DNA of 64,000 nt from Chloroflexota bacterium. GTDB lineage: Bacteria > Chloroflexota > Limnocylindria > Limnocylindrales > Limnocylindraceae. Below, piece after piece: positions 1 through 33,246 of the stretch (position 1 is its first letter; every line of letters begins with the position of its first letter). A program made the position numbers and the translations under genes. Under the pieces are notes generated by a model that did no database searches, had not been told where the DNA came from, and was given only the letters and a program-made list of their open reading frames with translations. Location: NCBI GenBank assembly GCA_041176225.1, contig JBEDDM010000001.1, positions 20,405-84,404 of the forward strand, given 5' to 3'.

Positions 1-1104
1 GAGGTACGCAAGCGTGAGTACCCCCCATGTGTTGGCAATCAACACCAGCGCGGTTACGGCGGCGATCGGACGCCAGCGCGGGAGCGCCGCGGCGAGTGCA
101 AGGGTGAGCGGAACTGCGGGGAAGAGGTAGCGCTCATGGACGCGCGTTGGGAGGACGAAGAAGGCGATCGCGATCAGCGCGAGGGCGGCGACCGTTCTGG
201 TGCGCTCGTCGTGTCGTGCCGCCCACACCGCCGCGGCGATCGCCACAACGAGCAATAGTGTGCCGATAAAGAGTGCCGGTGGGCCGAAGCCAAAGAGAGG
301 AGCGGTGTCGCTCCCCCAACCTCCGTTCAGGAGGATGCCTGTCCCACCACTATCCGCGAGCGCCCAGAGACTCCACGCGTTCACGCTCAAGTATGGGTAG
401 GTTGCCGCCGCCTCGCCAACCCTCTGGATCAGGTCAATCACGGTTAGGCCAAATGGAAGTGCCGCAACGGAGACTACCGCCGTGCCGGTGAGGGCAATGA
501 GTGGGAGTGACCAAACATCGCCGCTGCGACGCGCGCGGACGATTGCAATCACCGCAATCAGGGGGATGAGGATTCCGAACTGCGGCTTGATCACTGCGGC
601 GAGTGCGGCGAGTGCGGCGGCGCGGACGGTGCGCCCTTTGATTAGCTCTGTGACTGCAACGACCAGCACGCTCGTTCCAACGGCATCGACCTGCCCCCAG
701 ACTGCAGAGTTCAGCCACGTGATTGGTGTGAACGCAAGGAGGAGGGCGACCACGCGCTGCGCGCGCGTTGATGCACCGAGCTCGCTCGCCAACCGAACCG
801 TGGCAACGATCAGTAGGCCGTCGGCAAGGATCCCTGGGAGCTTGATCAGCGCACCAGGATCAAACGATCCTGTGAGCACACTGCTGAGTGCGCCGAGTGG
901 CCAGAGGATCCAGAGATAGCCAGGGAGATAATCAAGAAAGTAGCCGCGTGTGTATGCGCCGAGCGGACCGTTCGCACCAAGGTCTGCCGCCCAGAAACGA
1001 AATGCTTCGAGGTCTGCGGTGAACCCAGCGTTCGCCGGAAGGAACACGTATGCGATGATCATGCGCAACAGAAGTGCGAAGACGACGATCAGCGCAGTGC
1101 TCAT
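1..1104 (-). CDS. Polytopic membrane protein, probable GT-C-type glycosyltransferase (ArnT/PMT/DUF2029-like). The 3' end runs off the window start, so it is absent from the ORF track (no in-window stop).
   Basis: Manual reverse-complement translation from an ATG at 1104 gives an uninterrupted reading frame to position 1 (MSTALIVVFALLLRMIIAYVFLPANAGFTADLEAFRFWAADLG...YFLDYLPGYLWILWPLG...). It has multiple hydrophobic helices and is divergent from a GT2 gene. The start codon is uncertain: no SD and no in-frame stop are visible upstream. Confidence 0.55.
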   Translation of the reverse strand, partial: MSTALIVVFALLLRMIIAYVFLPANAGFTADLEAFRFWAADLGANGPLGAYTRGYFLDYLPGYLWILWPLGALSSVLTGSFDPGALIKLPGILADGLLIVATVRLASELGASTRAQRVVALLLAFTPITWLNSAVWGQVDAVGTSVLVVAVTELIKGRTVRAAALAALAAVIKPQFGILIPLIAVIAIVRARRSGDVWSLPLIALTGTAVVSVAALPFGLTVIDLIQRVGEAAATYPYLSVNAWSLWALADSGGTGILLNGGWGSDTAPLFGFGPPALFIGTLLLVVAIAAAVWAARHDERTRTVAALALIAIAFFVLPTRVHERYLFPAVPLTLALAAALPRWRPIAAVTALVLIANTWGVLTLAYL

Positions 1105-1132: not shown

Positions 1133-1879
1133 GTGAAGATACCGATTAACGAGCTCTCCCTCTTCTTTCCGTGTCACAACGAGGCGGAGAACCTTGACGC
1201 GCTTGTTGCTGAGGCGCTGAGCGCACTCCCTACGCTCGCTGAGCGGTATGAGGTGATCCTTGTTGATGACGGCTCTACGGATGCAACCCCTGCCGTCGCG
1301 GCGCGGCTTGAAGCGGCTCACCCGAACGTTGTTCGCGTGATTCGACACGACATAAATCGCGGGTATGGCGGAGCGCTCCGCTCCGGGTTTGGTGGCGCGC
1401 GCTACGAGTGGATTGCGTTCACCGATGGGGATCGGCAGTTCCGCGTTGCTGATCTTGCAGCGCTTATCTCGGCCGTGCCAAATAGCGAAACGGTTGCACT
1501 TGGTTATCGCATCAAGCGTGCCGACCCTGCGCTACGGAAGATCTACGCCGCGGTGTATCGTCTCGCGAATCGTCTCTGGTTTGGCCTTCCGGTGCGCGAT
1601 GTGGACTGTGCAATGAAGCTCTTCCCTCGCACCGCGCTGCACGGCGTTGCCGTTGCATCGAACGGGGCGTTCTTTTCCGCAGAGCTGCTTATCAAGCTGC
1701 GGGCGCGTGGCGTGCAGATGGTTGAAGTCGGTGTTCCGCACTTCCCGCGCGTTGCCGGATCTGCCAGCGGCGCTCGGCCCTCCGTGGTGTTTGCGGCGGT
1801 GCGTGACTTCTGGTCGCTTCGTGGTGCGCTCTGGTTCCGCCGCGCAAGTGCACTTGCGCGGGGGGTTCGGCTCCTCTAG
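1133..1879 (+). CDS. Family 2 glycosyltransferase (polyprenyl-phosphate sugar synthase / DPM1-like)
   Basis: 248-aa ORF with an ...ILVDDGSTDAT... DxD-region and a GT2 fold signature. GTG start at 1133 is preceded by GGAGGAGG (1122-1129). Confidence 0.8.
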   Translation: MKIPINELSLFFPCHNEAENLDALVAEALSALPTLAERYEVILVDDGSTDATPAVAARLEAAHPNVVRVIRHDINRGYGGALRSGFGGARYEWIAFTDGDRQFRVADLAALISAVPNSETVALGYRIKRADPALRKIYAAVYRLANRLWFGLPVRDVDCAMKLFPRTALHGVAVASNGAFFSAELLIKLRARGVQMVEVGVPHFPRVAGSASGARPSVVFAAVRDFWSLRGALWFRRASALARGVRLL

Positions 1880-2387: not shown

Positions 2388-2442
2388 GCGGTGATGATCC
2401 CACCCTTCGCCGTGCCGTGCGCGCCGCACACAGCACCGCGTG

Positions 2443-4914
2443 TTACGGCTGAGTGCTTGGTAGTTCAATCACAGGAGCGGCGGTGGCGGCTGGGGTTGGA
2501 GTGCCGCCAGGGGCTACCGCTGCGCCGAGTACCGCACCTCTGATGCGCCCCTCTTCAGCCCAGATGAACGTCGGCGCTCCGCCATCTCGTGCAAGCGCGA
2601 TGTAGCCACCAACGATGTTGGAGACAACGCCATCGGGGGCCACAAGTTGATACTGCGCGAGCACGCTCCCGGAGGCCGCCTTGCTGTACGCGAGCATTCG
2701 CTGGTTGCGGACATCCCAGCCGTAAAGCACGCCTGTCCGGCTTGCGCCTGCGGAGAGGATGAGTCGAATTTCTGGGCTGCTGCGGATCACGCTGTCACCA
2801 GGGTCCGCTGGGACCCACTCGTCCACAGCGCCGCCAACATACCTTTGAACCAGGCCGTCTTGCGCAAGGTAGAGGTCGCCGTCAATTTCCATGGCGTCCA
2901 CACCGGTGAGCGACGTTGGGTTAATCAGATACCCGGTTGGTGGGGCCGGATAGCCCGTCCCATCGGGCGCGGGCGTGTATCGCAAGATTTGTCGCGCTGA
3001 GGGGTCAACTACATAGATTCTATACAGGCCTGTCCCCTCATCAGCAGCAAACCCGGAGATGATCGTTACGTCGCTCCCCCAAAGTTCGCCGTCCCGCACA
3101 CGGAGCTTCACGAGTGTTCCTTTCCCGCTTAGGTCGGCCGGCCGCCATCGCCAAAGGTTTGACGAGGCGTCAAAGATGAGGATGTCTGGTCCTGACGCGC
3201 TGATTGTCTGCGCGCGGCCCGTGGTGCTACCAAATAGTTCGTATCCGGGCTGGTAAATTACGGTTGCGCGAGGGTTTGGTTGCGCCGCCGGGTCGACTCG
3301 GTATACCGCTCCTGAGTAATCATCAAGGATATAGCTGTATCCGTCCGGCCCTTGGGTGATTGCCGTGATCTTGATGGGAACTGTTGCAGATGCGAAATCA
3401 AACACATCAAAAACTGAGGCGCGAGTGAGGAGGAAGAGTTTGTCGAGTGGCGCCTCCATCCTTTTGCGAAGTGCGTTGATCTCTGACACCGAGGCGCCAC
3501 CCGCTTCGGCGATCGCGAGTTTCTCTGTTGCACCAACCAGCAGTGTTCGCGCACGGTCTGGGTCACTTACAAGCAAATTGGTGACTGGGTTGAGTGCCTC
3601 ATCAACGGCTCGTGTTGCTTCAGCGAGGGACTCACGCGCATTTGCTGCAGCATCAAGCGTTGGATTCGTTTGATTCAGATAGACGCTTGCAGCACCGCCA
3701 ATTGCGGTGATGAGAATTGCTGTGAGCAACACGCTTGCGCTGCGCCGTCGGCTTTGAGCAATCGCCTGCTTCGGTGACACCTCACGTCTACGTTCAATAT
3801 CTAGGCTAGGTTCTGGCACTCGAGAGGCAGCCCACGGGAAGCGCCTCTCAGCTGCGCTAATGAGCCGTCTCGCCGCAGTGTGGAGCCGCGAAGGGGGTGT
3901 GGGCCCACGCTCAGCGCGGGAGCGCTCAATCTCTGGCTCAGCCCCGGGGCTGCGCTCCGCGCGCGCTCGTGCGGCTCGGCGGATCGCCTCGCGGTTTCTT
4001 GCATCACGGCTTGGTTGAGCCACGCGCGCCGCCGGACCGCGTGTTGACACCCCGCCACGCGCGCCGCTGCCTCGGCGCTCGGCGAGCACCTCTTGGGCGG
4101 CTCGATCAATTGGGGTGTACGGCTCCGTTGGATGTTCCGGGCGGCGGCGGTCCGCCTCTGGTTTTGGCGGCACAGCGGCGGCGATGAGCTCACTCCGTTC
4201 GTCGTTCCCCCCCTCCCATCTCGCGCGTGCCCGCGCTTTAGCCTGGGCGATGTTGTCTGTAGGGATTGCCAGGAGTGTGTCGTTTGCCTGCGAGGCGCTG
4301 CGCGGTGGTGGTAGCGCAGGTTCTTCGCTTGCAAGAAGGAGTGCGAGCTCTGCACCGTCGTTTGTCGGTCCTGGCCGACGCTTCAAAAGTTCTCGCCCCT
4401 CCTCTTCGCTGGCCGCAAGCGCGATTCGATCGCCGGGTGCAAGTGCAACACGCCCAGTGACAACCCCTTGCCGTTGCGCAGCTTTGGTTGACGCACCCGG
4501 CGCACCAGAGGGGAACAAGACAGTGACGTGTCGGCTTTCGCGGAGGAGTGAGGCGACGGCAGTGAGGTTTCCGCCTGATGCGGCCCACGCTTCACGACGA
4601 AGGAGGCCGACCATGCAGACCTCGCTCTGTTCGCCGAGCTGCTCGCGAAGCGCAACGATGATGGTGCGCGCACGCTCACCGGCGCCCCCTTCTCCTTGGT
4701 CAAAAAGATTCAGTGCGCGCTCGGCTGCCGCCTTGAGTTGAGATGTGTTCGATCCTGGGGCGGAGAGTAGAACCGCGCGCGCGCCGAGCGTGCGTGCGGT
4801 TGTGGGGCTCGTCGGCATGCGCAGTAGAAGTGCGCGGTCGCCCGCGGTGACCAGCGTCGCCGAGCCAACCAAGAGGGTTGGTTGCGCGTTAGTTGTTCGA
4901 AGGTTGTCGTTCAT
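2443..4914 (-). CDS. Large single-pass membrane protein of unknown function. It has an N-terminal cytoplasmic domain (~200 aa), an Arg/Pro/Glu-rich linker, one TM helix, and a C-terminal ~450-aa extracytoplasmic repeat (beta-propeller-like) domain.
   Basis: 823-aa ORF. TM segment SVLLTAILITAIGGAASVYL. The C-terminal region shows repeated ~45-aa units with G-x-(L/V)Y-x-x-D and W/Y motifs. The N-terminal segment weakly resembles the C-terminal half of PP2C/SpoIIE (…GRVALAPGDRIALAASEE…). Starts 17 nt downstream of the DUF721 gene. Confidence 0.5.
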   Translation of the reverse strand: MNDNLRTTNAQPTLLVGSATLVTAGDRALLLRMPTSPTTARTLGARAVLLSAPGSNTSQLKAAAERALNLFDQGEGGAGERARTIIVALREQLGEQSEVCMVGLLRREAWAASGGNLTAVASLLRESRHVTVLFPSGAPGASTKAAQRQGVVTGRVALAPGDRIALAASEEEGRELLKRRPGPTNDGAELALLLASEEPALPPPRSASQANDTLLAIPTDNIAQAKARARARWEGGNDERSELIAAAVPPKPEADRRRPEHPTEPYTPIDRAAQEVLAERRGSGARGGVSTRGPAARVAQPSRDARNREAIRRAARARAERSPGAEPEIERSRAERGPTPPSRLHTAARRLISAAERRFPWAASRVPEPSLDIERRREVSPKQAIAQSRRRSASVLLTAILITAIGGAASVYLNQTNPTLDAAANARESLAEATRAVDEALNPVTNLLVSDPDRARTLLVGATEKLAIAEAGGASVSEINALRKRMEAPLDKLFLLTRASVFDVFDFASATVPIKITAITQGPDGYSYILDDYSGAVYRVDPAAQPNPRATVIYQPGYELFGSTTGRAQTISASGPDILIFDASSNLWRWRPADLSGKGTLVKLRVRDGELWGSDVTIISGFAADEGTGLYRIYVVDPSARQILRYTPAPDGTGYPAPPTGYLINPTSLTGVDAMEIDGDLYLAQDGLVQRYVGGAVDEWVPADPGDSVIRSSPEIRLILSAGASRTGVLYGWDVRNQRMLAYSKAASGSVLAQYQLVAPDGVVSNIVGGYIALARDGGAPTFIWAEEGRIRGAVLGAAVAPGGTPTPAATAAPVIELPSTQP

Positions 4915-4930
4915 TGCACTGAGGATACGC

Positions 4931-5281
4931 CTAGTGTCGCTCGGTATCGTCGTTGCCCTGTCTAAGGCGCACGGTTAGCCCGATCGCGCGCGCGCCGCCT
5001 GGGTGGCTCGAATAGGCGCTGGCAATCTCGGCGCTACGTAGGTGGAGCTCTTGCGCGGTTGCGCGATCGTCAACCTCAATCGCAAGTCGGCCCCCTTCAC
5101 TCCCCGCCGTGAGTCGGCAGTGCGGCGCAAGGTGTGGCGCAATCTGCACGAGAAGCTCGTGAAAGACACGAGCGCGTTGTGAAAGTTCAAGCTCTTCTTG
5201 AAAGCCGAGCGCACGCGCCGCTTCAGGAATCAGTGTGCTCAACTTCTGCGGCTTCCCTTTACGTTGACGCTTATCGTTCAC
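4931..5281 (-). CDS. DUF721 family protein (the recF-downstream gene found in origin regions)
   Basis: 116-aa ORF overlapping the recF stop; position and size are typical of DUF721. Confidence 0.65.
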   Translation of the reverse strand: MNDKRQRKGKPQKLSTLIPEAARALGFQEELELSQRARVFHELLVQIAPHLAPHCRLTAGSEGGRLAIEVDDRATAQELHLRSAEIASAYSSHPGGARAIGLTVRLRQGNDDTERH

Positions 5282-6431
5282 GTTTCACCTCGCTTCCGCG
5301 CGGACCTCGAACCACCTCTTGGCATGCGCTGGCGGCGACGAGCCGCGGAGCGAGATCGCCGAGCGTCGTGGTGGTGATGATGGTCTGGGGGAGTGAGGTC
5401 AGGCGCTGGACGAGATGATCGCGTCGCTCCGGATCAAGCTCCGAGAATGCATCGTCGAGCAGAAGGAGAGGCGGCTCGCCGTGATCGGTAGTCAGCAGCT
5501 CAATCTCCGCAAAAAGAAGTGCGAGAAGTAGGCTGCGCTGTTGTCCGCGCGATGCGATCGGCGCGAGGTCCTTTCCGTCCGCCTTAAACGTCAGGTCATC
5601 ACGGTGTGGGCCGACCAGCGTGTGTCCTTGATAACCCTCGCTCTCCGCGGTTTCGTCAAACGATCTGCGTAGGTGGGTCGCGGCGGCGTCCGCGTCGTCA
5701 TCTAGAAGGTGCGCTTCACGCGAAACATAGTGGGCGGTGAGATCGCCCTCTGTAGGGGCAACCTCACGGTGCGCGGTTGTGAGGGGGCCTGCGAGTGCGC
5801 GCAGCAGTTCGTTGCGAGCCGCAACAATCTCTGCGCCGCTACTGATCAAGAGCTCAGTCCATGGTTTCATCTCTGCGCTGATCGCCCGCCGCTCGGCACC
5901 GTCGCTCTCGAGCGCATCCTTCAAGAGCCGGTTGCGCTGCTTGAGCGTGCGTTCATACCTGGTGAGGGCGGCACGGTAGCCCGCCTTCCACTGGATTGCC
6001 ATTCGGTCCAGGGCGGCGCGGCGCACAGAGGGGGCCCCGACGACGAGGCCTGTCTCTTCCGGAACAAAGGCGGCGATCTTGAGCTTCTCGCCGAGCGTCT
6101 CGCTCCTTCGCGCGGTGCCGTTCACGAGATACCGGGTGCGCTCCGAGCGGCCGATCTCTGCGGCGAGTGTGGTTGCCGCAAGCGGATCGTCCTGCGCCTC
6201 GCGCGGATCTCGGAGGGTGACGGTGAACGCACCGCTGCTTGCCCCCTCCTGGACGAGTTCGCGGAGCGCGCTCGCTCGGTGTGAGCGCCCAGTGGCCGCC
6301 ACGAGCAGCGCCTCAATCGCGGTGGTCTTCCCAGCGCCATTCGCCCCCCAGAGGATCTGTGGCCCTGCAGAGAAGCGGATCTCTCCGGCGGTCCAGCTCC
6401 GAATCTGTTGGAGGCGCACGCGCTCAATCAC
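5271..6431 (-). CDS. recF: DNA replication/repair protein RecF
   Basis: Walker A GANGAGKTT near the N-terminus and a C-terminal LLLDDAFSELD signature; sits downstream of dnaN. Confidence 0.95.
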   Translation of the reverse strand: MIERVRLQQIRSWTAGEIRFSAGPQILWGANGAGKTTAIEALLVAATGRSHRASALRELVQEGASSGAFTVTLRDPREAQDDPLAATTLAAEIGRSERTRYLVNGTARRSETLGEKLKIAAFVPEETGLVVGAPSVRRAALDRMAIQWKAGYRAALTRYERTLKQRNRLLKDALESDGAERRAISAEMKPWTELLISSGAEIVAARNELLRALAGPLTTAHREVAPTEGDLTAHYVSREAHLLDDDADAAATHLRRSFDETAESEGYQGHTLVGPHRDDLTFKADGKDLAPIASRGQQRSLLLALLFAEIELLTTDHGEPPLLLLDDAFSELDPERRDHLVQRLTSLPQTIITTTTLGDLAPRLVAASACQEVVRGPRGSEVKRER

Positions 6432-6495
6432 TTTCGTCCACTCCTCTTCATCGGTTCACGGGCGTGTGTGCCGCGCGGTGTGCGGCACCGTCTGA

Positions 6496-7641
6496 TCAGG
6501 AGGGGGTGCGCACCGGCATCACGACGTGGAGGTAGTCGCGCCCGTCAAGCGGACGGAGCAGCCCTGGTGCGATCGGTCCGGTGAGCTCCAGGGAGAACTG
6601 GTCTGCTTCCACGCGAGAGAGGACATCCACAAGATACTTCGCGTTAAACGCAATTGTTGTCCCTTCCCCTTCAACCTTAGCCTCAACGTGTGCCGCGTGA
6701 TCGCCAACGTCTGCGGCGGCGGTGATGTCAATTGCTCCACCGCCTTCAGATGTAATCGCGAATCGCACGATGTGCGCTGACGCGTCGGCAACAACTTGCG
6801 CAAGGCGAACGGCGCGCAAGAAATCGTCGCGCACGATAGTTACCTTTGTGGTGTGAGACGTTGGGATCACTTGCTGGAATGGTGGGAACTGCCCATCAAT
6901 AAGTCGGCTGACCAACACGGTGTCGCCGAGCTTGAACTGCAGTTGGTTCTTTGCCGGTGTCAACGTGATCTCAACGAGGTCATCAACGTCTGAGAGCAGA
7001 CGAAGGAGTTCGGCATACGCGCGCGCAGGCACAATGATGCTCGTCTCTGGTGCCGCCTCTGCAAGCGCAGCGCCAGCGACTGCGATGCGGTAGTTGTCCG
7101 CGGCGGCAAACGTTGCCTTCTCTCCAGTGAGGCTTGTGAGCACGCCGGTGAGGATCGGTCGCGCTTCGTCGCCCGCGGCGGCAAACACGGTTGAGTCGAG
7201 TGCGGCGCGCAGCTCTTTCTGGGAGATCCGCGCCGTGACGCGCTCGCCAGCGGCCCCAACTTGAGGGAAGTCGTCGGCGGGTGTTGCGCGAAGGTGTGAT
7301 GCGCTGCGACCGCACTTCAGGTGAACACGGCCGTCCGGGAGAAGCGAGATATCAATCTTCTCGTTCGGGAGCCCGTTCACCACGTCGCTGAGGAGGCGTG
7401 CTGGGATCGTTGTTGCACCCTTCTCTTCAATCTTGGCGGGGACCCAGTGGGTCACCGCGATCTCGAGGTTGGTTGCCACAAGGCGGAGCCCGCCGTCTTC
7501 GGTGCCGAGGTAGACGTTCGAGAGGATCGGAAGCGTGTTCCGAGAGGCCACGCCGTGACCTACAACCGCCAGGCCGCGTGCAAGGTTCTCCTGAATCACC
7601 GATAGCTTCATTTCAACTCCTCCACATACCCCTCTAGGCAT
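6496..7641 (-). CDS. dnaN: DNA polymerase III beta sliding clamp
   Basis: 381 aa; MKLSVIQENLARGL...TNLEIAV matches DnaN; lies between dnaA and recF. Confidence 0.95.
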   Translation of the reverse strand: MPRGVCGGVEMKLSVIQENLARGLAVVGHGVASRNTLPILSNVYLGTEDGGLRLVATNLEIAVTHWVPAKIEEKGATTIPARLLSDVVNGLPNEKIDISLLPDGRVHLKCGRSASHLRATPADDFPQVGAAGERVTARISQKELRAALDSTVFAAAGDEARPILTGVLTSLTGEKATFAAADNYRIAVAGAALAEAAPETSIIVPARAYAELLRLLSDVDDLVEITLTPAKNQLQFKLGDTVLVSRLIDGQFPPFQQVIPTSHTTKVTIVRDDFLRAVRLAQVVADASAHIVRFAITSEGGGAIDITAAADVGDHAAHVEAKVEGEGTTIAFNAKYLVDVLSRVEADQFSLELTGPIAPGLLRPLDGRDYLHVVMPVRTPS

Positions 7642-7912: not shown

Positions 7913-9343
7913 CTATGCGGAGGCGGCAGCCCCCTGGCCGTATCGAAGGAGCGCCTCGCGCAGAAGGGCCACCTCTCGGCGGAGTTCCGCGTCGTAGCTC
8001 ATCTCGCGCTCGATCTTGCTGCAGGCGTGAATGATCGTGGAGTGGTCTCGCCCCCCGAGCGCACCGCCAATACGAACGAGCGACGCGTCAGTCTCCTCGC
8101 GCGAGAGGTAGGCGGCGATCTGGCGAGGAACCACAATCTCGCGGTCGCGCTTCGGGCCACGCAGCTGCTCAACGGTCACGCCGTAGTGTTCGGCGACAAC
8201 GGCAACCACCTGCTCCGGCTCAAGGATGCGCTTCGGGCTCGGATAGACCGCCTCGCTCAACACCCGTGCGGCGAGCTCCATCGTGACCGGCATGCCGCTG
8301 AGGCGCCCCACCGCAACGAGACGGGTGAGCGCCCCTTCAAGCTCGCGCACATTACTCTGCACGCGGCGTGCGACCTGCTCTAACACGTCGTCTGCAACGA
8401 TCACGCCACTCTCTTCTACCTTGCTGCGCAGAATGGCGATTCGCGTCTCAAGATCAGGCGAAGAGATGTCTGCAATCAAGCCCCACTCAAAGCGAGAGCG
8501 TAGGCGCTCTTCAAGGAGCGAGATTTCCTTTGGCGTGCGATCCGAAGTGATCACGATCTGCTTCCCTGCGGAGTGGAGGGTGTTGAACGTGTGGAAGAAC
8601 TCTTCTTGCGTCCGCTCCTTGTCCGCAATGAATTGGATGTCGTCGATCAGCAACACGTCAATCTTCCTGAAGCGCGAACGGAACGCATCGGCCGCACCCT
8701 GCTGGATGCCGAGAATAAACTCATTGGTGAACGCTTCACCAGTGATGTAAAGAACACGTCGCTTTGGCGAACGCTCCATCACTGCGTTCCCAATCGCGTG
8801 AAGCAGGTGTGTCTTCCCGAGACCAGTACCGCCGTAAAGGAAGAGCGGGTTGTATGCGCCACCTGGCCGCTCGGAGACAGACTGCGATGCAGCGTGTGCA
8901 AGCCGGCTCGCGGAACCAACGACATACGTCGCGAATGTGTATCGCGCGTTCAGGTTGGTTGGTCGCGCTGGCTCGCTCGCATCAACAACGCGAACCGAAT
9001 CGCTCGAAGGCGTGTGTGCGCGCACCTGTGACACGTTGTCTGTTGACGCACTCTTCTTCCCTGCGAGCGCACCTTGCGCATCAAGCTCATCCTCGCTCAC
9101 AACTTCTACCTGAAGCGTCACGCTATAGCCAACAATCTTTGCGATTGTTTGTGCGATGAGTGAGCGGTAGCGCTCTTCAATCCAATCCTTTGCAAAACCA
9201 GAAGCAACACCGAGCGTGAAAGTGCTGCTCTGTTCGTCAACGCGAAGGAGTGCTGTTCGACGGAACCAGGTTTCGAAGGTCGCCTGGGAGAGGCTGATCT
9301 CTAGCTCTCCGAGAGTGGCGCGCCAGACCTGTCGTCGATCCAT
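7913..9343 (-). CDS. dnaA: Chromosomal replication initiator DnaA
   Basis: 476 aa; AAA+ Walker A GGTGLGKTHLL and a C-terminal DnaA-box-binding domain (…HSTIIHAC…). Confidence 0.97.
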   Translation of the reverse strand: MDRRQVWRATLGELEISLSQATFETWFRRTALLRVDEQSSTFTLGVASGFAKDWIEERYRSLIAQTIAKIVGYSVTLQVEVVSEDELDAQGALAGKKSASTDNVSQVRAHTPSSDSVRVVDASEPARPTNLNARYTFATYVVGSASRLAHAASQSVSERPGGAYNPLFLYGGTGLGKTHLLHAIGNAVMERSPKRRVLYITGEAFTNEFILGIQQGAADAFRSRFRKIDVLLIDDIQFIADKERTQEEFFHTFNTLHSAGKQIVITSDRTPKEISLLEERLRSRFEWGLIADISSPDLETRIAILRSKVEESGVIVADDVLEQVARRVQSNVRELEGALTRLVAVGRLSGMPVTMELAARVLSEAVYPSPKRILEPEQVVAVVAEHYGVTVEQLRGPKRDREIVVPRQIAAYLSREETDASLVRIGGALGGRDHSTIIHACSKIEREMSYDAELRREVALLREALLRYGQGAAASA

Positions 9344-10212: not shown

Positions 10213-10415
10213 AGCGACTCGCCGTTGCCTTCATCCATCTCTATCGAATCCTCTTTGCATGGCTGCCATCAAGCTGCCGATTTGAGCCGAGCTGCTCTCG
10301 CTACACGGAAGAGGCGATCATGAAGTACGGCGTCCTTAAGGGGAGCTGGATGGGTGCGCGCCGAATTGCGCGCTGCTCCCCACTCAGCGCCGGCGGATGG
10401 GATCCGGTCCGATGA
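10209..10415 (+). CDS. yidD: Membrane protein insertion efficiency factor YidD
   Basis: 68 aa with CxxC…C cysteines (PSSCRFEPSCSRY); between rnpA and yidC. Confidence 0.85.
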   Translation: MKRLAVAFIHLYRILFAWLPSSCRFEPSCSRYTEEAIMKYGVLKGSWMGARRIARCSPLSAGGWDPVR

Positions 10416-11533
10416 TCAACCGAGCGCGTCAACTGCTGCCAACGGTTCTCGTTCTGACACTCGTCGCGCTTGCTGTTGGTGCGTGCGACGCTGCCTCGGT
10501 CGTTGTTCCGCCATCTCCGCCAGCGCCTCTCGTTCCAGCATCACCAGGCGCTGATCCGTTCAGCCTCCTCTCTTGGCTGTTCACACCAGTCTTCCAGGCG
10601 CTCTTCATTGGCCTGGTCTTCTTTGACAACCTGACGGGAGATATCGGAATCTCAATTCTTTTGCTCACGATCGTCATCCGCATCGTCTTGATTTCGCCGT
10701 ACCGACGCCAACTCGTTTCACAGAAGCGCACGCAGCTACTCGCGCCAGAAGTGGAAGAGATCAAGCGTCGCTATAAAGGCGATCGAATGAAGATCCAGCA
10801 GGCGCAGGCGGAGCTGTACAAGACGCGCGGCATCAATCCGCTGAGCGGATGTCTGCCGACCCTGCTTCAGTTCATCGTGCTCATCCCAATGTATTCCGTG
10901 ATTGATCAAGGACTTAAGACGAGCGATCCAACCGCCATGCTGAGCATCTTCGGCTTTCAGGTCTTGGATCCAGGATGCGTGAACGGTCTCGCTGACGGTG
11001 TCCGCTGTTTTGACACAACAGTGGGATGGCTTGGCGGGCTTGATGTTTCGCAACCATGGGCTCCACTTATTCTTCTCGGGATCGGCATCTCCCCGCTTGC
11101 GCTCGGCAGTGCGCTGTTGCAGGTGCTACAGACGCGCATGACGCTTCCAAAGGGCGGAGCAGTAAAGGGCGATCCGGCAGCGGCAATGCAGAGCCAGACG
11201 CTGGTGATCCTGCCGCTGATCTCAATCCTGTACGGCGGCATCTTGCCAGCAGGACTCTTTATCTACTGGATTGCGTCTACGGTCTTCTCGTTGGCGCAGC
11301 AGTATTTGATCCTCGGCTACGGCGGACTCTTCCCACTCTTTGGGTGGACTCCGGCCTTCGCCGTGAACCATGCACCGCGATTCCCCGTGGCGATGCCGGA
11401 GAGCGCTCCGGCGGGCGACGTGGTTGAAGGGGCACCACAATCCCGCACGGATCTTGACCGCGCCGCATCTGCGGCCGCCACGATCCGTTCGGCCAAGAAG
11501 CGCGACCGACACGGTCGCCGAGGGGGCAGATAA
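10397..11533 (+). CDS. yidC: Membrane protein insertase YidC/Oxa1 family
   Basis: 378 aa; multi-TM with conserved YidC core; basic C-terminal tail KKRDRHGRRGGR. Confidence 0.9.
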   Translation: MGSGPMINRARQLLPTVLVLTLVALAVGACDAASVVVPPSPPAPLVPASPGADPFSLLSWLFTPVFQALFIGLVFFDNLTGDIGISILLLTIVIRIVLISPYRRQLVSQKRTQLLAPEVEEIKRRYKGDRMKIQQAQAELYKTRGINPLSGCLPTLLQFIVLIPMYSVIDQGLKTSDPTAMLSIFGFQVLDPGCVNGLADGVRCFDTTVGWLGGLDVSQPWAPLILLGIGISPLALGSALLQVLQTRMTLPKGGAVKGDPAAAMQSQTLVILPLISILYGGILPAGLFIYWIASTVFSLAQQYLILGYGGLFPLFGWTPAFAVNHAPRFPVAMPESAPAGDVVEGAPQSRTDLDRAASAAATIRSAKKRDRHGRRGGR

Positions 11534-16411: not shown

Positions 16412-17158
16412 TCACCCTGCACGATGGTATGTCCCACGCGCTTCGTCGCGGATAAGGCGTCCACCCTCAAGTCCGATCACACGTTTTCGCAGTGTGGTGA
16501 CTACGTCTGAATCGTGTGTTGCGACAAGGACGGTGACGCCAAGCTGATTGATCTGCCCGAGCAGCTCCATGATCTCCCAGCTGATGAGTGGATCAAGGTT
16601 CCCCGTTGGCTCATCGGCAATGAGCAGCTCAGGGTTGCCAACGATGGCGCGCGCGATCGCAGCGCGCTGCTGCTCGCCACCCGAGAGCGCGTCAGGGTAT
16701 CGCTCCGCGAGCGCAGTGAGACCAACAATGCGAAGGGCGCGCTCAACAGCGGCGTCAACCTCTTCGCGTGGCGCGCCGGTGACCTCCAGCGCAAAGGCGG
16801 TGTTCTCGCGAACGGTGCGTCTCTGCAGGAGTCGGAAGTCTTGGAAGACCACGCCAACACGTCGGCGCAAGTAGGGGACCTCGCTCGGTTGAAGGGTGTG
16901 TACCGCGTGCCCCGCAACGTGCACCTCACCAGAGAGAGGAATCACGTCGCGCACGAGGAGGCCGATCAGCGACGACTTCCCCGCGCCAGAAGGCCCAACA
17001 AGGAAGGCGAACTCACCAGGGTTGATGGTGAGGCTGACGCCCGCGAGTGCTGTGTGTCCGCTTGGGTATTGAACGCGGACATCTCGCAGCGTAACGACCG
17101 GCTCAACTGCCAGAAGCTCTGCAGCACCATCAGTGTTCATGGGCTCTAGGTTACTCAT
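16412..17158 (-). CDS. ftsE: Cell-division ATP-binding protein FtsE
   Basis: ABC ATPase motifs (GPSGAGKSS, LSGGEQQR, LLIADEPTGNLD). The ORF-track start at 17230 overlaps prfB; an internal Met at 17158 is the more likely start. Confidence 0.9.
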   Translation of the reverse strand: MSNLEPMNTDGAAELLAVEPVVTLRDVRVQYPSGHTALAGVSLTINPGEFAFLVGPSGAGKSSLIGLLVRDVIPLSGEVHVAGHAVHTLQPSEVPYLRRRVGVVFQDFRLLQRRTVRENTAFALEVTGAPREEVDAAVERALRIVGLTALAERYPDALSGGEQQRAAIARAIVGNPELLIADEPTGNLDPLISWEIMELLGQINQLGVTVLVATHDSDVVTTLRKRVIGLEGGRLIRDEARGTYHRAG

Positions 17159-18282
17159 CGTCTGGCCCCGCCGCTGCCACAGGTGCGCCGATCGCCAACC
17201 GTTCAAGTTCCGCAAGGATGAAGGGGTCAAAGTCGCCGTCCATCACACCAGTGGTATCTGCGGTCTGATGTCCACTGCGGTGATCTTTCACCATCTGATA
17301 CGGGTGGAAGACGTAGCTGCGAATCTGGCTCCCCCAGCCGGCGACCACAGTCTCGCCGCGCACGCGTGCCAGCTCATCTTCGCGCGCGCGAATCTTCAGT
17401 TCGATCAACTTACCCCGCAGCATCTTCTCCGCGGTCTCGCGATTCTGCATCTGCGAGCGCTGATTCTGGCTTGACACGGCGATGTTGGTGGGAAGGTGCG
17501 TGAGACGAACCGCCGACTCGGTCTTGTTGACGTGTTGGCCACCCGCGCCACTGGAGCGGAAGGTATCAACGCGAATCTCGTCCCAATTCAACACCACGTC
17601 TTGATCATCCTCAACTTCTGGGATCACTTCGAACATGGCGAAGGTGGTCTGTCGTCGTTTCTGTCCATCAAACGGAGAGATGCGCACCATCCGGTGCACG
17701 CCACGTTCCGCGCGCAACCAGCCGAACACATTGCGACCACGAATCTCAAGGGCAACGCTTCGGTAGCCGGCGCCTTCGCCTTCGGTGAAGTCAACAATCT
17801 CGTGCGCGAATCCGTGACGCTCCGCCCACCGCATGTACGCGCGTAGGAGCATGGCGGTCCAGTCGCACGCTTCGGTTCCGCCTGCGCCGGCTTGGATCGT
17901 CACGACAGCATCTGCATCTGCGTATTCGCCCGCGAAGAGGAGGGAGGTGCGTGCCTGTTGGAAGTCCTGTTCTACCCGAGCACTCTTCTCTGAGACTTCG
18001 GCGAGGAGCGCCTCATCACCTTCGGAGGTTGCAAGCTCGAAGAGCTCGCCGAGGTCGCGCGCGGCGGTGGTTAGCTGCTGCCACCGCGTGATCTCTTCGC
18101 GCAGGCCCTCCGCTTCACGGGCGAGTCGACGGGCGCTGCGTTGGTCGTCCCAGAAGCCTGGAGCGAGCATCTGCGTCTCAATTGCTGCGAGACGCGCCCC
18201 CTTTACGGCTGGGTCAAAGACGCCCCGACGTTGCCTCGATACGTCCGAGCAGGTCGCGCAGGCCGGCAGCGTCGACGCTCAC
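17151..18282 (-). CDS. prfB: Peptide chain release factor 2, made by a programmed +1 frameshift. The short 0-frame leader (GTG at 18282) joins the 339-aa track ORF at a CUU UGA C site.
   Basis: The track ORF has the SPFD…GGQHVNKTESAVRLTHLPT core including the GGQ motif. Upstream, the minus strand reads GTG AGC GTC … TCG GGG CGT CTT TGA C: leader MSVDAAGLRDLLGRIEATSGRL, then +1 frame DPAVKGARLAAIETQMLAPGFWDD… The SD-like GGGG, 3-nt spacer and CUU-UGA-C match the canonical RF2 autoregulatory site. Confidence 0.9.
18213..18219 (-). other. prfB: Programmed +1 ribosomal frameshift site of prfB (CUU UGA C with an upstream SD-like GGGG)
   Basis: Minus-strand CTTTGAC at 18213-18219 (plus strand gtcaaag), with GGGGCG immediately 5'. 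Confidence 0.85.
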
Positions 18283-25141: not shown

Positions 25142-25198
25142 CTCGTCACCTCCTTTCTTGTGTGCAATGTCTGGGCTGGTTTGATGTGATTCGTTTGA

Positions 25199-28065
<2,867 letters not shown>

Positions 28066-28084
28066 GGTCAAACCCCCCTGCTCC

Positions 28085-28921
28085 TCACGCCGCACTCCCA
28101 AAGACGCGGGTTGCGAACTCGCTTGCCGCCTGAGCATACGACTCTGCGCCGGAACTCCCTGGTGCGTAGCTCCGAATTGAAATGCCATGGCTCGGCGCCT
28201 CGGCGAGGCGCACGGAGCGGGGCACTCGAGCGCGGTAGACGAGCTCCCCAAAGTGACTCTCCACCTCTCGCACCACATCTCCGCCGAGCTTGGTGCGTGG
28301 GTCAAGCATAGTGAGTAGGAAGCCGTTGACCTCTAGATCCGGGTTGAGGCGATCACGGACAAGGCGGATCGTTGCCATCAACTGGGAGAGGCCTTCGAGC
28401 GCGTAGTATTCGCACTGCACGGGGACGAGCACCGAATCTGCCACCGCAAAGGCGCTGATTGTTACTAAACCGAGGGACGGAGGGGTGTCCACGAGCACAA
28501 CTTCCGCCTCGCCAGCCAGTCGCAGGCCCGCAGCAAGTTGGCGCTCCCCGGTCTCATCTCCTGCCGCGAGCTCAACGTCAATCCCCGCGAGGTCGGCGGA
28601 CCCTGGAATGAGGCTGAGGTTCGGGATGGAGGTCGGCTGGGCCAGCTCGTGAGCTGGACGGCGCCCAAGGAGGAGGTCGTAGGCGGTTGGGGCACCTTGC
28701 GGTGTAACAAAGCCGAGGCCACTGGTGAGGTTGCGCTGGGGGTCAAGGTCGACGACAAGGACTTTGTGCCCTGCGTGGGCGAGCTCCGCGGCAAGATTGA
28801 GCACGGTGGTGGTCTTCCCCACACCACCCTTCTGGTTGGCACAGACAATGACCTGCGCACGGCCGAGGTTCCTTGGTTCTATGACCTCTCCCACAGGTTG
28901 AGTGTAGCAGGAGGGGCTCAC
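28085..28921 (-). CDS. parA: Chromosome partitioning ATPase ParA/Soj
   Basis: Deviant Walker A KGGVGKTT; 278 aa. Confidence 0.9.
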   Translation of the reverse strand: MSPSCYTQPVGEVIEPRNLGRAQVIVCANQKGGVGKTTTVLNLAAELAHAGHKVLVVDLDPQRNLTSGLGFVTPQGAPTAYDLLLGRRPAHELAQPTSIPNLSLIPGSADLAGIDVELAAGDETGERQLAAGLRLAGEAEVVLVDTPPSLGLVTISAFAVADSVLVPVQCEYYALEGLSQLMATIRLVRDRLNPDLEVNGFLLTMLDPRTKLGGDVVREVESHFGELVYRARVPRSVRLAEAPSHGISIRSYAPGSSGAESYAQAASEFATRVFGSAA

Positions 28922-29474: not shown

Positions 29475-31364
29475 ATGAGCAGCACTCACGTAATTCGTCG
29501 ACCACTTCGCTACATCTCCGCCGTTGTCCTTACTGCGTTGATTGGCGGACTCCTCAGTGTGCGACTCGTTACGGTGCAAGCGAGCGGTGACGGCGCAGCG
29601 ACACGCAGTATCACGACACTGAGCGACGGTAACCGCATCATTGAAGAGATCATTGCACCACCACGCGGGCTGATCCTTGATCGCGCAGGTCGCGTCCTTG
29701 CAGAAAATATTGCAACGTACGCTGTGCAGATTCGACCAGGAGATTTACCGCTCACGATTCGACCAGGCGTGGTGAAGCGTCTTGCAGAGATCCTCAATAT
29801 TGATCCAGTGCGAATCACCATGACACTTGATCGCGCCACTGGATCTATTTGGGAACCTGTGCGCATTGCAAGCGTCGTTGATGAGCGCATCACACGATTC
29901 ATTGAAGAGGAGCGCGCCGCACTACCGGGCGTTGAGACGCTCTTTGAAGCACGACGTGCATACCCACTCGGAGAGCTAACGAGTCAAGTTGTGGGCTACG
30001 TTGGCCGCATTGATGCCCTTGAGCTAAGCGCACTCTCTGCAGCGGGATACAATGAACTTGATTACATCGGTCGCGCAGGTGTGGAGCAGAGTTATGAAGA
30101 GGTGCTGCGCGGCACGCCGGGCATTCGCCAAATTGAAATTGATGTCCAGGGGCGAGAGATCCGTGAACTTGGCGTCACTAAACTTCCAGTTGCTGGAAAG
30201 AGTGTGGTGTTGACGATTGATGCTGAGGCGCAGCAGCGGGCGTTTGATGCGCTTAGCTGGGGAGTGAAGGCAGCGGGAAACAAGCAGGGTGTAGTGACGA
30301 GCATGAACCCACAGAACGGCCAGATTATTGCAATGGTATCACTCCCCACCTATGACAACAATCTCTTCTCGGCGGGCATCACCACGGAGCAGTACCAGAA
30401 ATACCTTGACAACAAGAATGCTCCACTGCTGAACCATGCAACCGGATCCCACTTTCCGCCAGGGAGCACGTACAAGCTGGTGACCTTCTCGTGTGCGCTT
30501 GACGAAGGTGTTGTTCGGGAAGAGGAGACGCTCGCCTCCCTTCCATACCTAGAAGTTGGCGATCAGAAGTTCTACGAATGGAATCGTGCCGGATTTGGCC
30601 GCAGGCTCACCCCAGCGCAAGGCTTCTCGTATAGCTCGGCGGTTGTGACCTATCAGCTTGCGCAACGTCTGAAGATCGATCGGCTCGCCGACTGCGGAGG
30701 AGCGTGGGGCTTCGGACGTCCAACTGGCATTGATCTGCCGAACGAGATTGGCGGGCTGGTTCCAGATCAAGACTGGGCGCGAAGTGCGATCAGACGCACC
30801 CTATATGACGGTGAAGTGCTGCAATCGGCGCTCGGGCAGGGGTATGACCTCGCCACGCCGCTGCAGGTTCTGAACTCTTTTTCAGCGCTCGCAAACGGTG
30901 GGACACTCTGGAAGCCGCATGTCGTCCTTGAGATTCGCGAACCCGACGGGACGCTTGCTGAGACCAAGGCGCCTGTTGCTGCAGCGAGCGTTGAGATGCG
31001 AAACAGCACCATGACTGAGATGCGTCGGGCGTCGCGACTTGTGGTGACGAATGAGTTCATGACAAAGAATCTCGGGCAGATCCCCCTCTTTCTCACCGGG
31101 AAGACGGGGACGGCAGAGTACGGCGTGCGTGATAAGCAGGGCCGACTCCCGTACCACCACTGGATCTCAGGCTTTGTGGCCCCAACGAATGATTGGAGCC
31201 GCACCGACGCCGACTTCGCCTATGTGGTCTTCATGCACGGATCAAACACCGCCTCCAACGCAGCCATTGAGGTGCTCAAGCGGTACTTGCAGCTGCAGTA
31301 TGACTTCCCGCGCGACTATAGGATCCCAGGCGCAATGTCGATCGGAAACTACTATGGCGAGTAG
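29475..31364 (+). CDS. mrdA: Penicillin-binding protein 2 (elongation-specific peptidoglycan transpeptidase)
   Basis: 629 aa; N-terminal TM anchor, PBP dimerisation domain and transpeptidase motifs (STYK, SSN-like, KTGTA). Confidence 0.9.
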   Translation: MSSTHVIRRPLRYISAVVLTALIGGLLSVRLVTVQASGDGAATRSITTLSDGNRIIEEIIAPPRGLILDRAGRVLAENIATYAVQIRPGDLPLTIRPGVVKRLAEILNIDPVRITMTLDRATGSIWEPVRIASVVDERITRFIEEERAALPGVETLFEARRAYPLGELTSQVVGYVGRIDALELSALSAAGYNELDYIGRAGVEQSYEEVLRGTPGIRQIEIDVQGREIRELGVTKLPVAGKSVVLTIDAEAQQRAFDALSWGVKAAGNKQGVVTSMNPQNGQIIAMVSLPTYDNNLFSAGITTEQYQKYLDNKNAPLLNHATGSHFPPGSTYKLVTFSCALDEGVVREEETLASLPYLEVGDQKFYEWNRAGFGRRLTPAQGFSYSSAVVTYQLAQRLKIDRLADCGGAWGFGRPTGIDLPNEIGGLVPDQDWARSAIRRTLYDGEVLQSALGQGYDLATPLQVLNSFSALANGGTLWKPHVVLEIREPDGTLAETKAPVAAASVEMRNSTMTEMRRASRLVVTNEFMTKNLGQIPLFLTGKTGTAEYGVRDKQGRLPYHHWISGFVAPTNDWSRTDADFAYVVFMHGSNTASNAAIEVLKRYLQLQYDFPRDYRIPGAMSIGNYYGE

Positions 31365-31370
31365 GCGGCG

Positions 31371-32519
31371 ATGAGTCTCGGATCTTCGGTCACGCGTGGG
31401 CCGTTCGGTGCGGCGAGTTGGATCGGCAGCATCGTCCGTCGCATGGATTGGCTTGCAACCTCTGGGATGTTGCTCTTGATGCTCTCCGGAATCGGCATGG
31501 CGTGGATCAATGCACGGAGCTACGACCAAGAGCTGTTGAGCCTCTCGTCAATCTTCTTGCGCTCCATCATCTGGACGCTCCTCGGGCTGGCCACCTTTGC
31601 AGTCACCACCGCGATCAACTGGCGTTGGATTCGCACGTTTGCATGGCCGCTTTACGCAGCGAATCTACTGCTGCTGGTTGCAACGTTGATCTTCGGTCAA
31701 GACTCAGGGGGAAACTCCCGCGCGATCGCGATCTTCGGGATCGCCATCCAGTCGAGCGAGGTTGCAAAGATCCTGACGCTTGTGGCGCTCGCCACTGTGC
31801 TGACACGTGATAATGCACAGCCAGACGATCTGAACGCAACGCTCCTCGCTGTGATCGTTGTTGCGGCACCGTTCCTCTTGGTTGCGGTGCAGCCAGACGC
31901 AGGGACCGCCGTGATCATCCTCGCCGCACTCTTCGGCGCGCTACTTCTTTACGGTGTGGCTACGCGCTGGGTTGCTGCGCTCGCCGCACTCGGCGTGCTG
32001 GCGGTGCCGTTTGCTTGGGCCTTCTTGATCGCGGATTATCAGAAGGAGCGACTGATCGCCTTTATTGATCCGAATGCAGACCCTGCAGGGCCGAAGTATC
32101 AACTCACGCAAGCGCTCGACGCGATTTCCAGCGGCGGGCTTTTTGGGATCGGCTTTGACGGAACTGGGAGCATCGCGCCACTCCCCGTACAAGAGAGCGA
32201 CTTCGTCTTTGCGGCGCTCGTTCGAAGTTTCGGAGCGTTTGGCGGCCTGCTGATTATTGCGCTGCTCGGCCTGATCGTGATCCGGCTGATTTGGCACGCG
32301 TGGGAGGCTGAGGATCGCTTTGGCATCGTCCTTGCGGGAGGGCTCGCGGCGATCTTCCTGATCCAGGCGGGGGTCAACATTGGAATGAACCTCGGGATGG
32401 CGCCAATTACAGGGATCCCCCTCCCCTTTGTGAGCTACGGCGGCGCCTCACTGATCTCCCTTTCCTTTGGGCTTGGCCTCGTACAGAGCCATCGGGTGCA
32501 TCAGGGGGGCGGCGCCTAG
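31371..32519 (+). CDS. rodA: SEDS-family peptidoglycan polymerase RodA/FtsW
   Basis: 382 aa; 10-TM SEDS pattern (…SDFVFAAL…PFVSYGGASL…). Confidence 0.9.
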   Translation: MSLGSSVTRGPFGAASWIGSIVRRMDWLATSGMLLLMLSGIGMAWINARSYDQELLSLSSIFLRSIIWTLLGLATFAVTTAINWRWIRTFAWPLYAANLLLLVATLIFGQDSGGNSRAIAIFGIAIQSSEVAKILTLVALATVLTRDNAQPDDLNATLLAVIVVAAPFLLVAVQPDAGTAVIILAALFGALLLYGVATRWVAALAALGVLAVPFAWAFLIADYQKERLIAFIDPNADPAGPKYQLTQALDAISSGGLFGIGFDGTGSIAPLPVQESDFVFAALVRSFGAFGGLLIIALLGLIVIRLIWHAWEAEDRFGIVLAGGLAAIFLIQAGVNIGMNLGMAPITGIPLPFVSYGGASLISLSFGLGLVQSHRVHQGGGA

Positions 32520-32563: not shown

Positions 32564-32593
32564 TTGACGAGGGAGCGCGGGTACACCTAGACT
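32564..32593 (+). promoter_or_regulatory. Putative sigma-70-type promoter for rplU-rpmA (TTGACG - 18 nt - TAGACT)
   Basis: TTGACG at 32564-32569 and TAGACT at 32588-32593, about 90 nt upstream of the rplU ATG. Confidence 0.4.
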
Positions 32594-32680
32594 CTCCCTC
32601 CCGCGCCTGACCTCTTCGTCAGCCCGCGACACGGTGGCTCGGCCGCCGCGGAAGTCTCGAATAAGAAGGGTGAATTAAGC

Positions 32681-33214: not shown

Positions 33215-33246
33215 TCAAGTAGTCGCAAGAAACCAAGGAGGACGTC

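Follow-up and report, generated by a model that had tools for sequence, protein, structure and literature searches.

What kind of protein is encoded by the open reading frame (ORF) of 823 amino acids (aa) that stands next to dnaA, dnaN, recF and the DUF721-family gene dciA in a freshwater Limnocylindrus-type Chloroflexota genome, and does this position tell anything about its function? The gene occupies positions 2443-4914 on the minus strand of the window, by which we mean the whole stretch of 64,000 nucleotides (nt) analysed here (GCA_041176225.1, contig JBEDDM010000001.1, positions 20,405 to 84,404). An earlier note, made from the sequence alone, had pointed out this ORF and its neighbours, which are indeed present as named, and had suggested an envelope-to-chromosome signalling device analogous to the actinobacterial phosphatase PstP. 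Based on predicted structures, homologue alignments and synteny, we propose with moderate confidence that the protein is a receptor-like pseudophosphatase scaffold with a PstP-like topology and a PknD-like sensor. Nothing found ties it to DNA replication, and its position among the origin genes is no evidence of a replication function.

A conserved gene for a bitopic membrane protein

The 823-aa ORF is a real, conserved gene, because 59 clusters of full-length homologues with 47-99 % identity occur in a large protein collection (one labelled Candidatus Limnocylindrus), an exhaustive profile search returned 567 representative clusters at E<=1e-3 and 98 at E<=1e-30, and two AlphaFold models of its regions are of high confidence. 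From the N- to the C-terminus it is composed of a cytoplasmic PPM fold, a basic linker, one transmembrane (TM) helix, a three-helix stalk, a six-bladed propeller and a disordered tail, which are placed in the window as follows:

2443..4914, minus strand: whole gene of the 823-aa bitopic membrane protein, with an ATG start and the stop codon at 2443-2445
4324..4893, minus strand: minimal PPM/PP2C-fold domain, most likely catalytically degenerate, cytoplasmic (residues ~8-197)
3739..4323, minus strand: cytoplasmic juxtamembrane linker (residues 198-392), from composition and conservation
4195..4278, minus strand: linker motif 1 (residues 213-240), TLLAIPTDNIAQAKARARARWEGGNDER, from the positions invariant in the 47-99 % homologues
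4096..4170, minus strand: linker motifs 2 and 3 (residues 249-273), PPKP ... PYTPIDRAA, from the homologue alignment
3676..3738, minus strand: single TM helix (residues 393-413), N-in/C-out, from hydropathy and the RRR cluster
3436..3663, minus strand: three-helix stalk, extracytoplasmic (residues 418-493, 76 aa), from the AlphaFold2 model
2530..3429, minus strand: six-bladed NHL-type beta-propeller (residues 496-795, 300 aa)
2446..2529, minus strand: C-terminal tail, Pro/Thr/Ala-rich and predicted disordered (residues 796-823), from composition and a predicted local distance difference test (pLDDT) score <50 at domain residues 387-410

Searches of Pfam, NCBIfam and the PDB with the single 823-aa sequence returned nothing meaningful, with no Pfam family at E<=1, and no Pfam or NCBIfam model and no curated family spans the whole protein. 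The earlier statement that it belongs to no named family is thus borne out by the Pfam and NCBIfam searches. A FliL match (E 0.005; 16.6 bits against a cut-off of 131) was discarded, being confined to the TM region, and a reading as a defence system was rejected, since PADLOC had no match for the protein or for the adjacent BFN and DciA proteins. In the literature searched on bacterial transmembrane pseudophosphatases no description of a comparable protein was found, nor any mention of the 823-aa protein in the papers searched on Limnocylindria.

The N-terminal domain is most likely a pseudophosphatase

The AlphaFold2 model of residues 1-200, built on a 12-sequence alignment, is confident, with a pLDDT of 88.9 and a predicted template modelling score (pTM) of 0.87. 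PPM phosphatases were the top 13 matches of this model in Foldseek (best E 2e-6), and all 27 matches at E<=1e-3 were PPM phosphatases save the PPM-fold effector SidD; PppA, tPphA, PstP, RsbX and SpoIIE are among the matches. A profile of the wider-family N-domain (A6) detects tPphA as well, at E 1.7e-5 over ~180 positions (profile positions 42-220). The profile of the aquatic-clade N-domain alone (A2) had no match in the PDB, and full-length members have no Pfam PP2C or SpoIIE match even at E<=1. As modelled, the domain is a complete minimal PPM fold of ~190 aa, about the size of RsbX. The faint likeness to the C-terminal half of PP2C/SpoIIE phosphatases that had been noticed earlier therefore reflects a true PPM fold, but one that is complete rather than half a domain. 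Both the fold of the PPM superfamily (PF00481, PF07228, PF13672), in which helices flank a beta-sandwich made of two antiparallel sheets, and sequence homology to its enzymes are found, whereas its conserved metal aspartates are not.

The metal ligands were checked in 76 family members aligned to the tPphA fragment. The motif II Asp (tPphA D34, DGxGG) is replaced by Ser, Thr or Val in 66 of the 76 and is Asp in one; the motif VIII Asp (tPphA D193, SDG) is a gap, Arg, Thr or Pro, with a single member keeping Asp; and the third-metal Asp (tPphA D119, GDSR) has become Asn, Gly, Ser or Pro, again with Asp in one of the 76. The motif II and motif VIII aspartates are hence each missing from 75/76 members. 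At the D34, D193 and D119 positions the window protein has S51, a deletion after A167 and N116, respectively, and in its clade the whole SDG segment is deleted. The motif XI position (tPphA D231, DN) is ambiguous, as it aligns with T184 of the window protein and D186 lies two residues off. With two core ligands gone throughout, inactivity is the likeliest state, and the domain is most likely a catalytically inactive pseudophosphatase, a possibility that the earlier note had raised and that the PPM fold and the missing ligands now favour. Conserved residues of the domain include the arginines R32, R41, R46, R83 and R148, and R41, G44, G161 and D162 are invariant over all clades (alignment A3).

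A basic linker with invariant motifs leads to a single transmembrane helix

The linker contains 19 % Arg, 18 % Ala and 12 % Pro, with a net charge of +14. It had been described as a disordered, Arg/Pro/Glu-rich segment of ~150 aa; the Arg and Pro enrichment holds, with Ala as the other abundant residue, but featureless disorder does not, given the invariant motifs. Motif 1 has the consensus TLLxIPxDxxAxAxAxARxRWExxNxER (213-240), in which T213, L214, P218, D220, A225, A227, A229, R230, R232, W233, E234, N237, E239 and R240 are invariant. Motif 2 is PPKP at 249-252 and motif 3 PYxPIDxAA at 265-273, with P249, P250, K251, P252, D255, R258, P265, Y266, P268, I269, D270, A272 and A273 invariant, and a further invariant block at 317-321 is kept in homologues down to 47 % identity. 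In the soil clade the linker is shorter and less basic and carries its own conserved motif, PDRSPIPLAD, which may correspond to PYTPID.

The TM segment at 393-413 reaches a Kyte-Doolittle maximum of 2.11, and the RRR cluster on the N-terminal side of the helix places the N-terminus inside and the C-terminus outside, in agreement with the single-pass topology proposed earlier. Invariant residues of the helix are G406, G407, A409 and Y412, the conserved GG being 406-407.

A stalk and a six-bladed propeller are predicted outside the membrane

The model of the outside region (AlphaFold2, residues 414-823, 14 sequences from both clades) is likewise confident (pLDDT 86.8, pTM 0.83). The stalk helices span 5-27, 39-58 and 63-80 in domain numbering with pLDDT >90, and the propeller comprises ~24 strands arranged as six four-stranded groups, with blades of ~50 aa. 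The blade count that the earlier note asked for is therefore six, as taken from the predicted structure and not from sequence repeats. That note had proposed ~450 aa of ~45-aa repeats; a propeller there is, but the region consists of a 76-aa stalk and a 300-aa propeller, and its repeats are structural and not visible at the sequence level, since aligning the propeller with itself by hhalign gave no significant internal repeat. Six NHL-type blades are modelled, but the NHL sequence profile (PF01436 clan) is not recognized, with no Pfam NHL model matching the full protein at E<=1, so that membership in the NHL class holds at the level of the predicted fold only. Non-enzymatic NHL binding domains rank highest among its structural matches. 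Propeller residues invariant in both clades are Gly, Arg, Asp, Trp, Tyr and Pro (for example LWRWRP, R691, R711, D734 and R739), without His or Cys; therefore, a binding module fits better than a metalloenzyme.

Family distribution, domain combinations and evolutionary rate

Relatives were found in 561 species-level genomes in a scan of species-representative genomes, and the best 80 of these are almost all Chloroflexota / Candidatus Limnocylindrales metagenome-assembled genomes. Beyond Chloroflexota, a single Patescibacteria protein was recovered (P0214, Ca. Uhrbacteria; L083 10001-12160), which has 22 % identity and the same architecture; it was the one addition from a homologue search with A3 in which close relatives predominated, and a search with A6 listed soil-clade fragments only. 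In P0214 motif II reads LLRDGR, and hydrophobic stretches apparently occur twice, near residues 291 and 350; this homologue is possibly less degenerate than those of Chloroflexota. Some databases tag soil-clade fragments as 'PrpC' or 'protein phosphatase', one such fragment having a precomputed PF00481 match.

The combination of N-domain, TM helix, stalk and propeller recurs in at least 23 full-length clusters among the 150 best representatives, and the window protein shows this full architecture together with the family motifs RTxG, GD, LWRWRP, DPSxxQILRY and IDGDLY (A1, A3). In the architecture census the stalk was seen solely together with the N-domain. In other proteins the propeller follows a signal anchor, as a single or a duplicated copy, or is combined with Kelch, PD40 or LysM modules, and is therefore a reusable extracytoplasmic module. 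Examples without the pseudophosphatase are tandem duplicates in P0082 and P0103, Kelch fusions in P0096, P0101 and P0138, a propeller with Kelch and LysM in P0102, and a propeller with PD40 and a weak, sub-threshold zf-HC2 (anti-sigma-type) N-terminal match in P0075.

Evolutionary rates were compared between the window and a 48 %-identical clade (L001), the domain figures being those of the window protein against P0057. Identity is 81 % for DnaA, 81 % for BFN, 79 % for DnaN, 72 % for YidC, 63 % for RecF, 49 % for DciA and 47 % for the whole target protein, with 57 % in its propeller region and 32 % in its N-domain. The target is thus the fastest-evolving member of the cluster, the propeller its best-conserved part and the N-domain its least constrained one. 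Limnocylindrus has streamlined genomes with few reported signal-transduction domains (PMC13212565), and the retention of the gene in spite of this argues for its usefulness.

The gene neighbourhood in the window

The following genes surround the target or lie further off in the window:

4931..5281, minus strand: DciA (DUF721 family; PF05258, 27.4 bits against a cut-off of 24)
5271..6431, minus strand: recF
6496..7641, minus strand: dnaN
7913..9343, minus strand: dnaA
1881..2387, minus strand: BFN/DUF151 (bifunctional-nuclease-domain) protein (PF02577, E 5e-35)
1133..1879, plus strand: GT2 glycosyltransferase, polyprenyl-phosphate-sugar synthase-like, convergent neighbour (PF00535, E 1e-24)
1..1095, minus strand: N-terminal part of a large PMT/GT-C-like membrane glycosyltransferase, cut at the window edge (tblastn)
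29475..31364, plus strand: PBP2
31371..32519, plus strand: RodA

The genes rnpA-yidC-jag diverge from dnaA. The recF and dciA genes overlap by 11 nt, the gap from dciA to the target is 16 nt, and the probable ATG of BFN at 2387 lies ~55 nt past the target stop, preceded by the Shine-Dalgarno-like GAAGGGTGG. No intrinsic terminator was found between recF, dciA, the target and BFN on the coding (minus) strand. A GC-rich imperfect inverted repeat, GTGCTGTGTGCGGCGCGCACGGCAC, is present at 2411-2437 (minus) within the target-BFN spacer; it has no following T-run and is therefore no canonical terminator. Given the short gaps, the recF/dciA overlap and the lack of a terminator-like site on the coding strand, the target is likely co-transcribed with recF, dciA and the downstream BFN gene.

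On the other side of BFN, the GT2 gene had only sub-threshold matches in NCBIfam, and the segment 1..1095 matches a 1385-aa protein of L001 with 59 % identity over 365 aa (tblastn), whose gene carries Pfam PMT and GT87. This divergently oriented GT-C and GT2 pair accompanies the block of dciA, target and BFN in all three Chloroflexota clades described below.

The earlier note had also pointed to rodA and PBP2 as a parallel with the PstP neighbourhood. Both genes are in the window, but ~25 kb from the target and on the opposite strand rather than beside it, and a Pfam scan of ~50 window ORFs revealed neither a Ser/Thr kinase nor an FHA domain. The locus therefore does not reproduce the actinobacterial pstP-rodA-pbpA-pknAB cluster, and reading it as a PstP cluster was rejected. 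No partner-switching gene (RsbV/W-type, STAS) was seen among the window ORFs scanned, and tblastn found no rhomboid gene in the window.

In many phyla gyrB-gyrA follow dciA; here that slot holds the target and BFN, and gyrB-gyrA lie with parB-parA at 22403-28921 (minus), ~17-24 kb away. Two class-I release-factor genes are present, at 17151-18170 (minus) and 34763-35848 (plus). The former (339 aa) starts at position 14 of the PCRF profile, which would fit prfB with an upstream programmed +1 frameshift. The ORFs at 32587-33255 (minus, 222 aa) and 482-919 (plus, 145 aa) have no Pfam family at E<=1e-5; the latter runs antisense to part of the GT-C gene and is unlikely to be a gene.

Synteny is stable in one Chloroflexota group

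Neighbours were counted by tblastn of the window proteins against related loci, the denominators being the loci with enough flank. The order dnaA-dnaN-recF-dciA-X-(rhomboid)-BFN, where X is the target or its homologue, is common to three Chloroflexota clades. In the soil clade, recF on the same strand and dciA are upstream in 66/66 loci each and dnaA and dnaN in 57/57, BFN follows downstream on the same strand in 69/69, and GT2 is on the opposite strand in 58/64. A clade known from metagenomes (P0183), with DnaA ~57 % and RecF ~36 % identical to those of the window, has recF in 20/20 loci, dnaA and dnaN in 8/8, BFN in 33/33 and GT2 in 21/21, and its gap holds a divergent DciA-like ORF that scores 21.6 bits, just below the Pfam cut-off. 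The 48 %-identical aquatic relative (L001) retains dciA-X-BFN-GT2. In L001 an unannotated 223-aa gene lies between dnaN and dciA (6344-7015, minus), and 6330-7286 (plus) matches the window RecF in tblastn, so recF there is maybe degraded or miscalled.

In one soil relative (L004) a rhomboid gene (PF01694, E 4e-35) is located at 10278-10994 (plus) between the target homologue and BFN, and a gap of ~0.7 kb separates target and BFN in most soil-clade loci (L003-L082). In neither the window lineage nor the P0183 clade does a rhomboid gene adjoin the target homologue. One protein, P0199, resembles a frameshifted read-through into the rhomboid.

The Patescibacteria homologue lies away from the origin, between a TsaD/GT2/DUF4012/MreB block and rplJL, with three GT2 genes, a GT4 gene, DUF4012 and MreB in its flanks. 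The linkage to DUF721/DciA-recF-dnaN-dnaA that the earlier note had claimed is thus kept over three Chloroflexota clades but does not extend to the sole homologue found outside the phylum. Because this homologue lacks the origin position, the linkage is a lineage trait, ancient and stable in one Chloroflexota group and not family-defining.

Discussion

Based on these findings, we propose that the protein may work as a receptor without catalysis. The propeller would bind a ligand on the extracytoplasmic side, which may be part of the envelope or come from the environment. Its occupancy or oligomeric state would be relayed to the cytoplasmic side by the stalk and TM helix, where the dead PPM domain and the linker motifs could offer a docking surface and, without catalysis, bind or sequester a partner. 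Several points weigh against this proposal. The loss of catalysis is deduced from sequence and profile alignment; the motif XI Asp may survive as D186, the soil clade holds an invariant Asp in a motif I-like SxD segment, and the single Patescibacteria homologue retains the DG of motif II, so that residual or altered activity is possible. The fast evolution of the N-domain could mean decay instead of a docking surface, although the invariance of R41, G44, G161 and D162 and the conservation of the fold and the linker motifs argue against pure decay. Moreover, no kinase, FHA or other signalling gene appeared in the scanned window ORFs or was noted in the examined flanks, and the lineage is wholly uncultured.

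Conservation that is highest in the propeller and lowest in the N-domain would also suit an envelope-biogenesis or surface factor, in which the propeller binds or acts on a cell-wall glycopolymer, lipid-linked sugar or glycoprotein together with the neighbouring GT2 and PMT/GT-C enzymes, and the PPM remnant is largely vestigial or an anchor. The opposite-strand GT2 in 58/64 and 21/21 loci, followed by the large PMT/GT87-like GT-C gene, the GT2 (three genes), GT4, DUF4012 and MreB flanks of the Patescibacteria homologue, and Pro/Thr/Ser-rich C-terminal tails that would resemble O-glycosylation linkers are consistent with it. However, GT2, being on the opposite strand, is outside the operon of the target, the top-ranking structural matches of the propeller are non-enzymatic binding domains, no invariant His, Cys or acidic cluster hints at a catalytic centre, and the N-domain fold and linker motifs are conserved over large distances; this reading thus seems unlikely, if less so than those that follow. 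An active atypical PPM-fold hydrolase, whether a receptor phosphatase like PstP or a SidD/Lem3-like enzyme with a rearranged metal site, would agree with the complete fold, the phosphatase labels and the PF00481 match of soil-clade fragments, the acidic D26, D72, D162 and D186 that remain in the window protein, and the persisting soil-clade motif I-like Asp and Patescibacteria motif II DG. It is hardly to be expected, with the motif II and motif VIII aspartates each missing in 75/76 members, the SDG segment deleted in the window clade and no PP2C or SpoIIE match in full-length members.

The envelope-to-chromosome device suggested earlier would report envelope or growth status to DnaA, DnaN, RecF or DciA, for example if its Arg-rich linker and dead phosphatase domain tethered or sequestered one of these proteins or origin DNA at the membrane. 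The dnaA-dnaN-recF-dciA-X order is invariant in every Chloroflexota locus with enough flank and has outlasted the divergence of RecF to 36-44 % identity; the genes are closely packed, as in an operon, the linker carries a strong positive charge (net +14), and many arginines are found among the conserved N-domain residues. However, this support is positional, and all loci come from one class-level group, so that shared ancestry explains much of the synteny. Furthermore, the same-architecture homologue of another phylum has glycosyltransferase/MreB genes on one side and rplJL on the other, it is the aquatic clade and not the family that shows the Arg-rich linker expansion, and no clamp-binding-type motif (QL[SD]LF consensus) was seen by eye. 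The dnaA operon often carries functionally unrelated passengers. The suggestion is therefore not borne out, and we regard it as improbable. The same low probability is given to a regulated intramembrane proteolysis in which the adjacent soil-clade rhomboid would cleave the GG-bearing TM helix and free the pseudophosphatase and linker into the cytoplasm as a signal. Helix-destabilising residues are typical of rhomboid substrates, and G406 and G407 are invariant; the PF01694 gene directly between X and BFN in L004, the ~0.7 kb gap of most soil loci and the apparent read-through in P0199 point the same way. Against it, a rhomboid gene next to the target is lacking in the window lineage and the P0183 clade, no such gene was detected elsewhere in the window, the target is type II (N-in), unlike the classical bacterial rhomboid substrates, which are mostly N-out, and the rhomboid was identified by Pfam in one locus only. 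A bolder combination of these ideas, an envelope-to-replication checkpoint by a receptor co-transcribed with dnaA-dnaN-recF-dciA, in which the propeller ligand would control membrane sequestration of DciA/DnaB, DnaN or DnaA through the dead PPM domain and linker motifs, and from which the soil-lineage rhomboid could release it, is more doubtful still, yet above the active hydrolase in our estimate.

If the checkpoint were true, it would be a previously undescribed coupling of cell-surface status to the initiation of chromosome replication, and if the dciA/dnaN link is functional, a path by which the envelope influences replication control would become open to testing; if the link is not functional, the protein remains a clear example of a pseudoenzyme put to new use in a receptor. 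The gene is kept by an abundant uncultured group of soil and freshwater Chloroflexota, in which its origin-operon position is fixed, and a family model for the at least 567 clusters (50 % identity) would improve the annotation of hundreds of metagenome-assembled genomes.

Comparison with known systems

Receptor Ser/Thr kinases and PPM phosphatases, such as PknB, PknD and PstP, are the standard envelope-sensing route of Terrabacteria. PstP (Rv0018c) consists of a PP2C domain, a TM helix and an extracellular domain (PMC3052367), and the PstP analogy claimed earlier is valid in topology, the order of PP2C domain, TM helix and ectodomain being common to both proteins. However, PstP is a working Mn2+ phosphatase that has three metal sites, whereas the corresponding ligands are substituted or deleted here; its ectodomain of 191 residues is shorter than the stalk and propeller of the target; it sits with rodA-pbpA-pknA-pknB, whereas the partners of the target are dciA and the BFN-domain gene; and the two sequences show no detectable orthology beyond the common fold (8-14 % identity). 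The target therefore has the architecture of a PstP orthologue, but neither an active catalytic centre nor the rodA/pbpA/pknA/pknB/fhaA/B cluster was found for it.

The sensor of PknD is a six-bladed propeller (PMC3322341), and the predicted propeller of the target resembles this extracellular domain (PDB 1rwi) as well as the NHL propellers of Brat, Mei-P26, TRIM71 and teneurin. The cytoplasmic partner of the propeller is a kinase in PknD and most likely a dead phosphatase here. Unlike in PknD and the NHL proteins, a three-helix stalk separates the membrane from the propeller, and the LWRWRP and DPSxxQILRYxPAxDGxGYP motifs are specific to the family of the target.

Among PPM pseudoenzymes, RssB and TAB1 act by non-catalytic docking, binding or sequestering a partner. 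RssB, with its C-terminal PPM domain, and human TAB1 are soluble proteins in which the pseudophosphatase is joined to a receiver or another cytoplasmic module, whereas the target is membrane-anchored with an extracytoplasmic sensor; E. coli RssB is a PPM pseudophosphatase that serves as an adaptor (PMC6546054). RsbX, the stressosome-associated SpoIIE-like 3zt9 and tPphA are minimal PPM proteins like the target, but they are active soluble enzymes of partner-switching or PII signalling. The constituent kinds, namely the receptor PPM protein, the NHL sensor and the PPM pseudoenzyme, are thus already known, while their combination in one protein is unusual, and with the topology of PstP, the sensor fold of PknD and the catalytic residues missing, the target is a candidate membrane-bound bacterial pseudophosphatase receptor.

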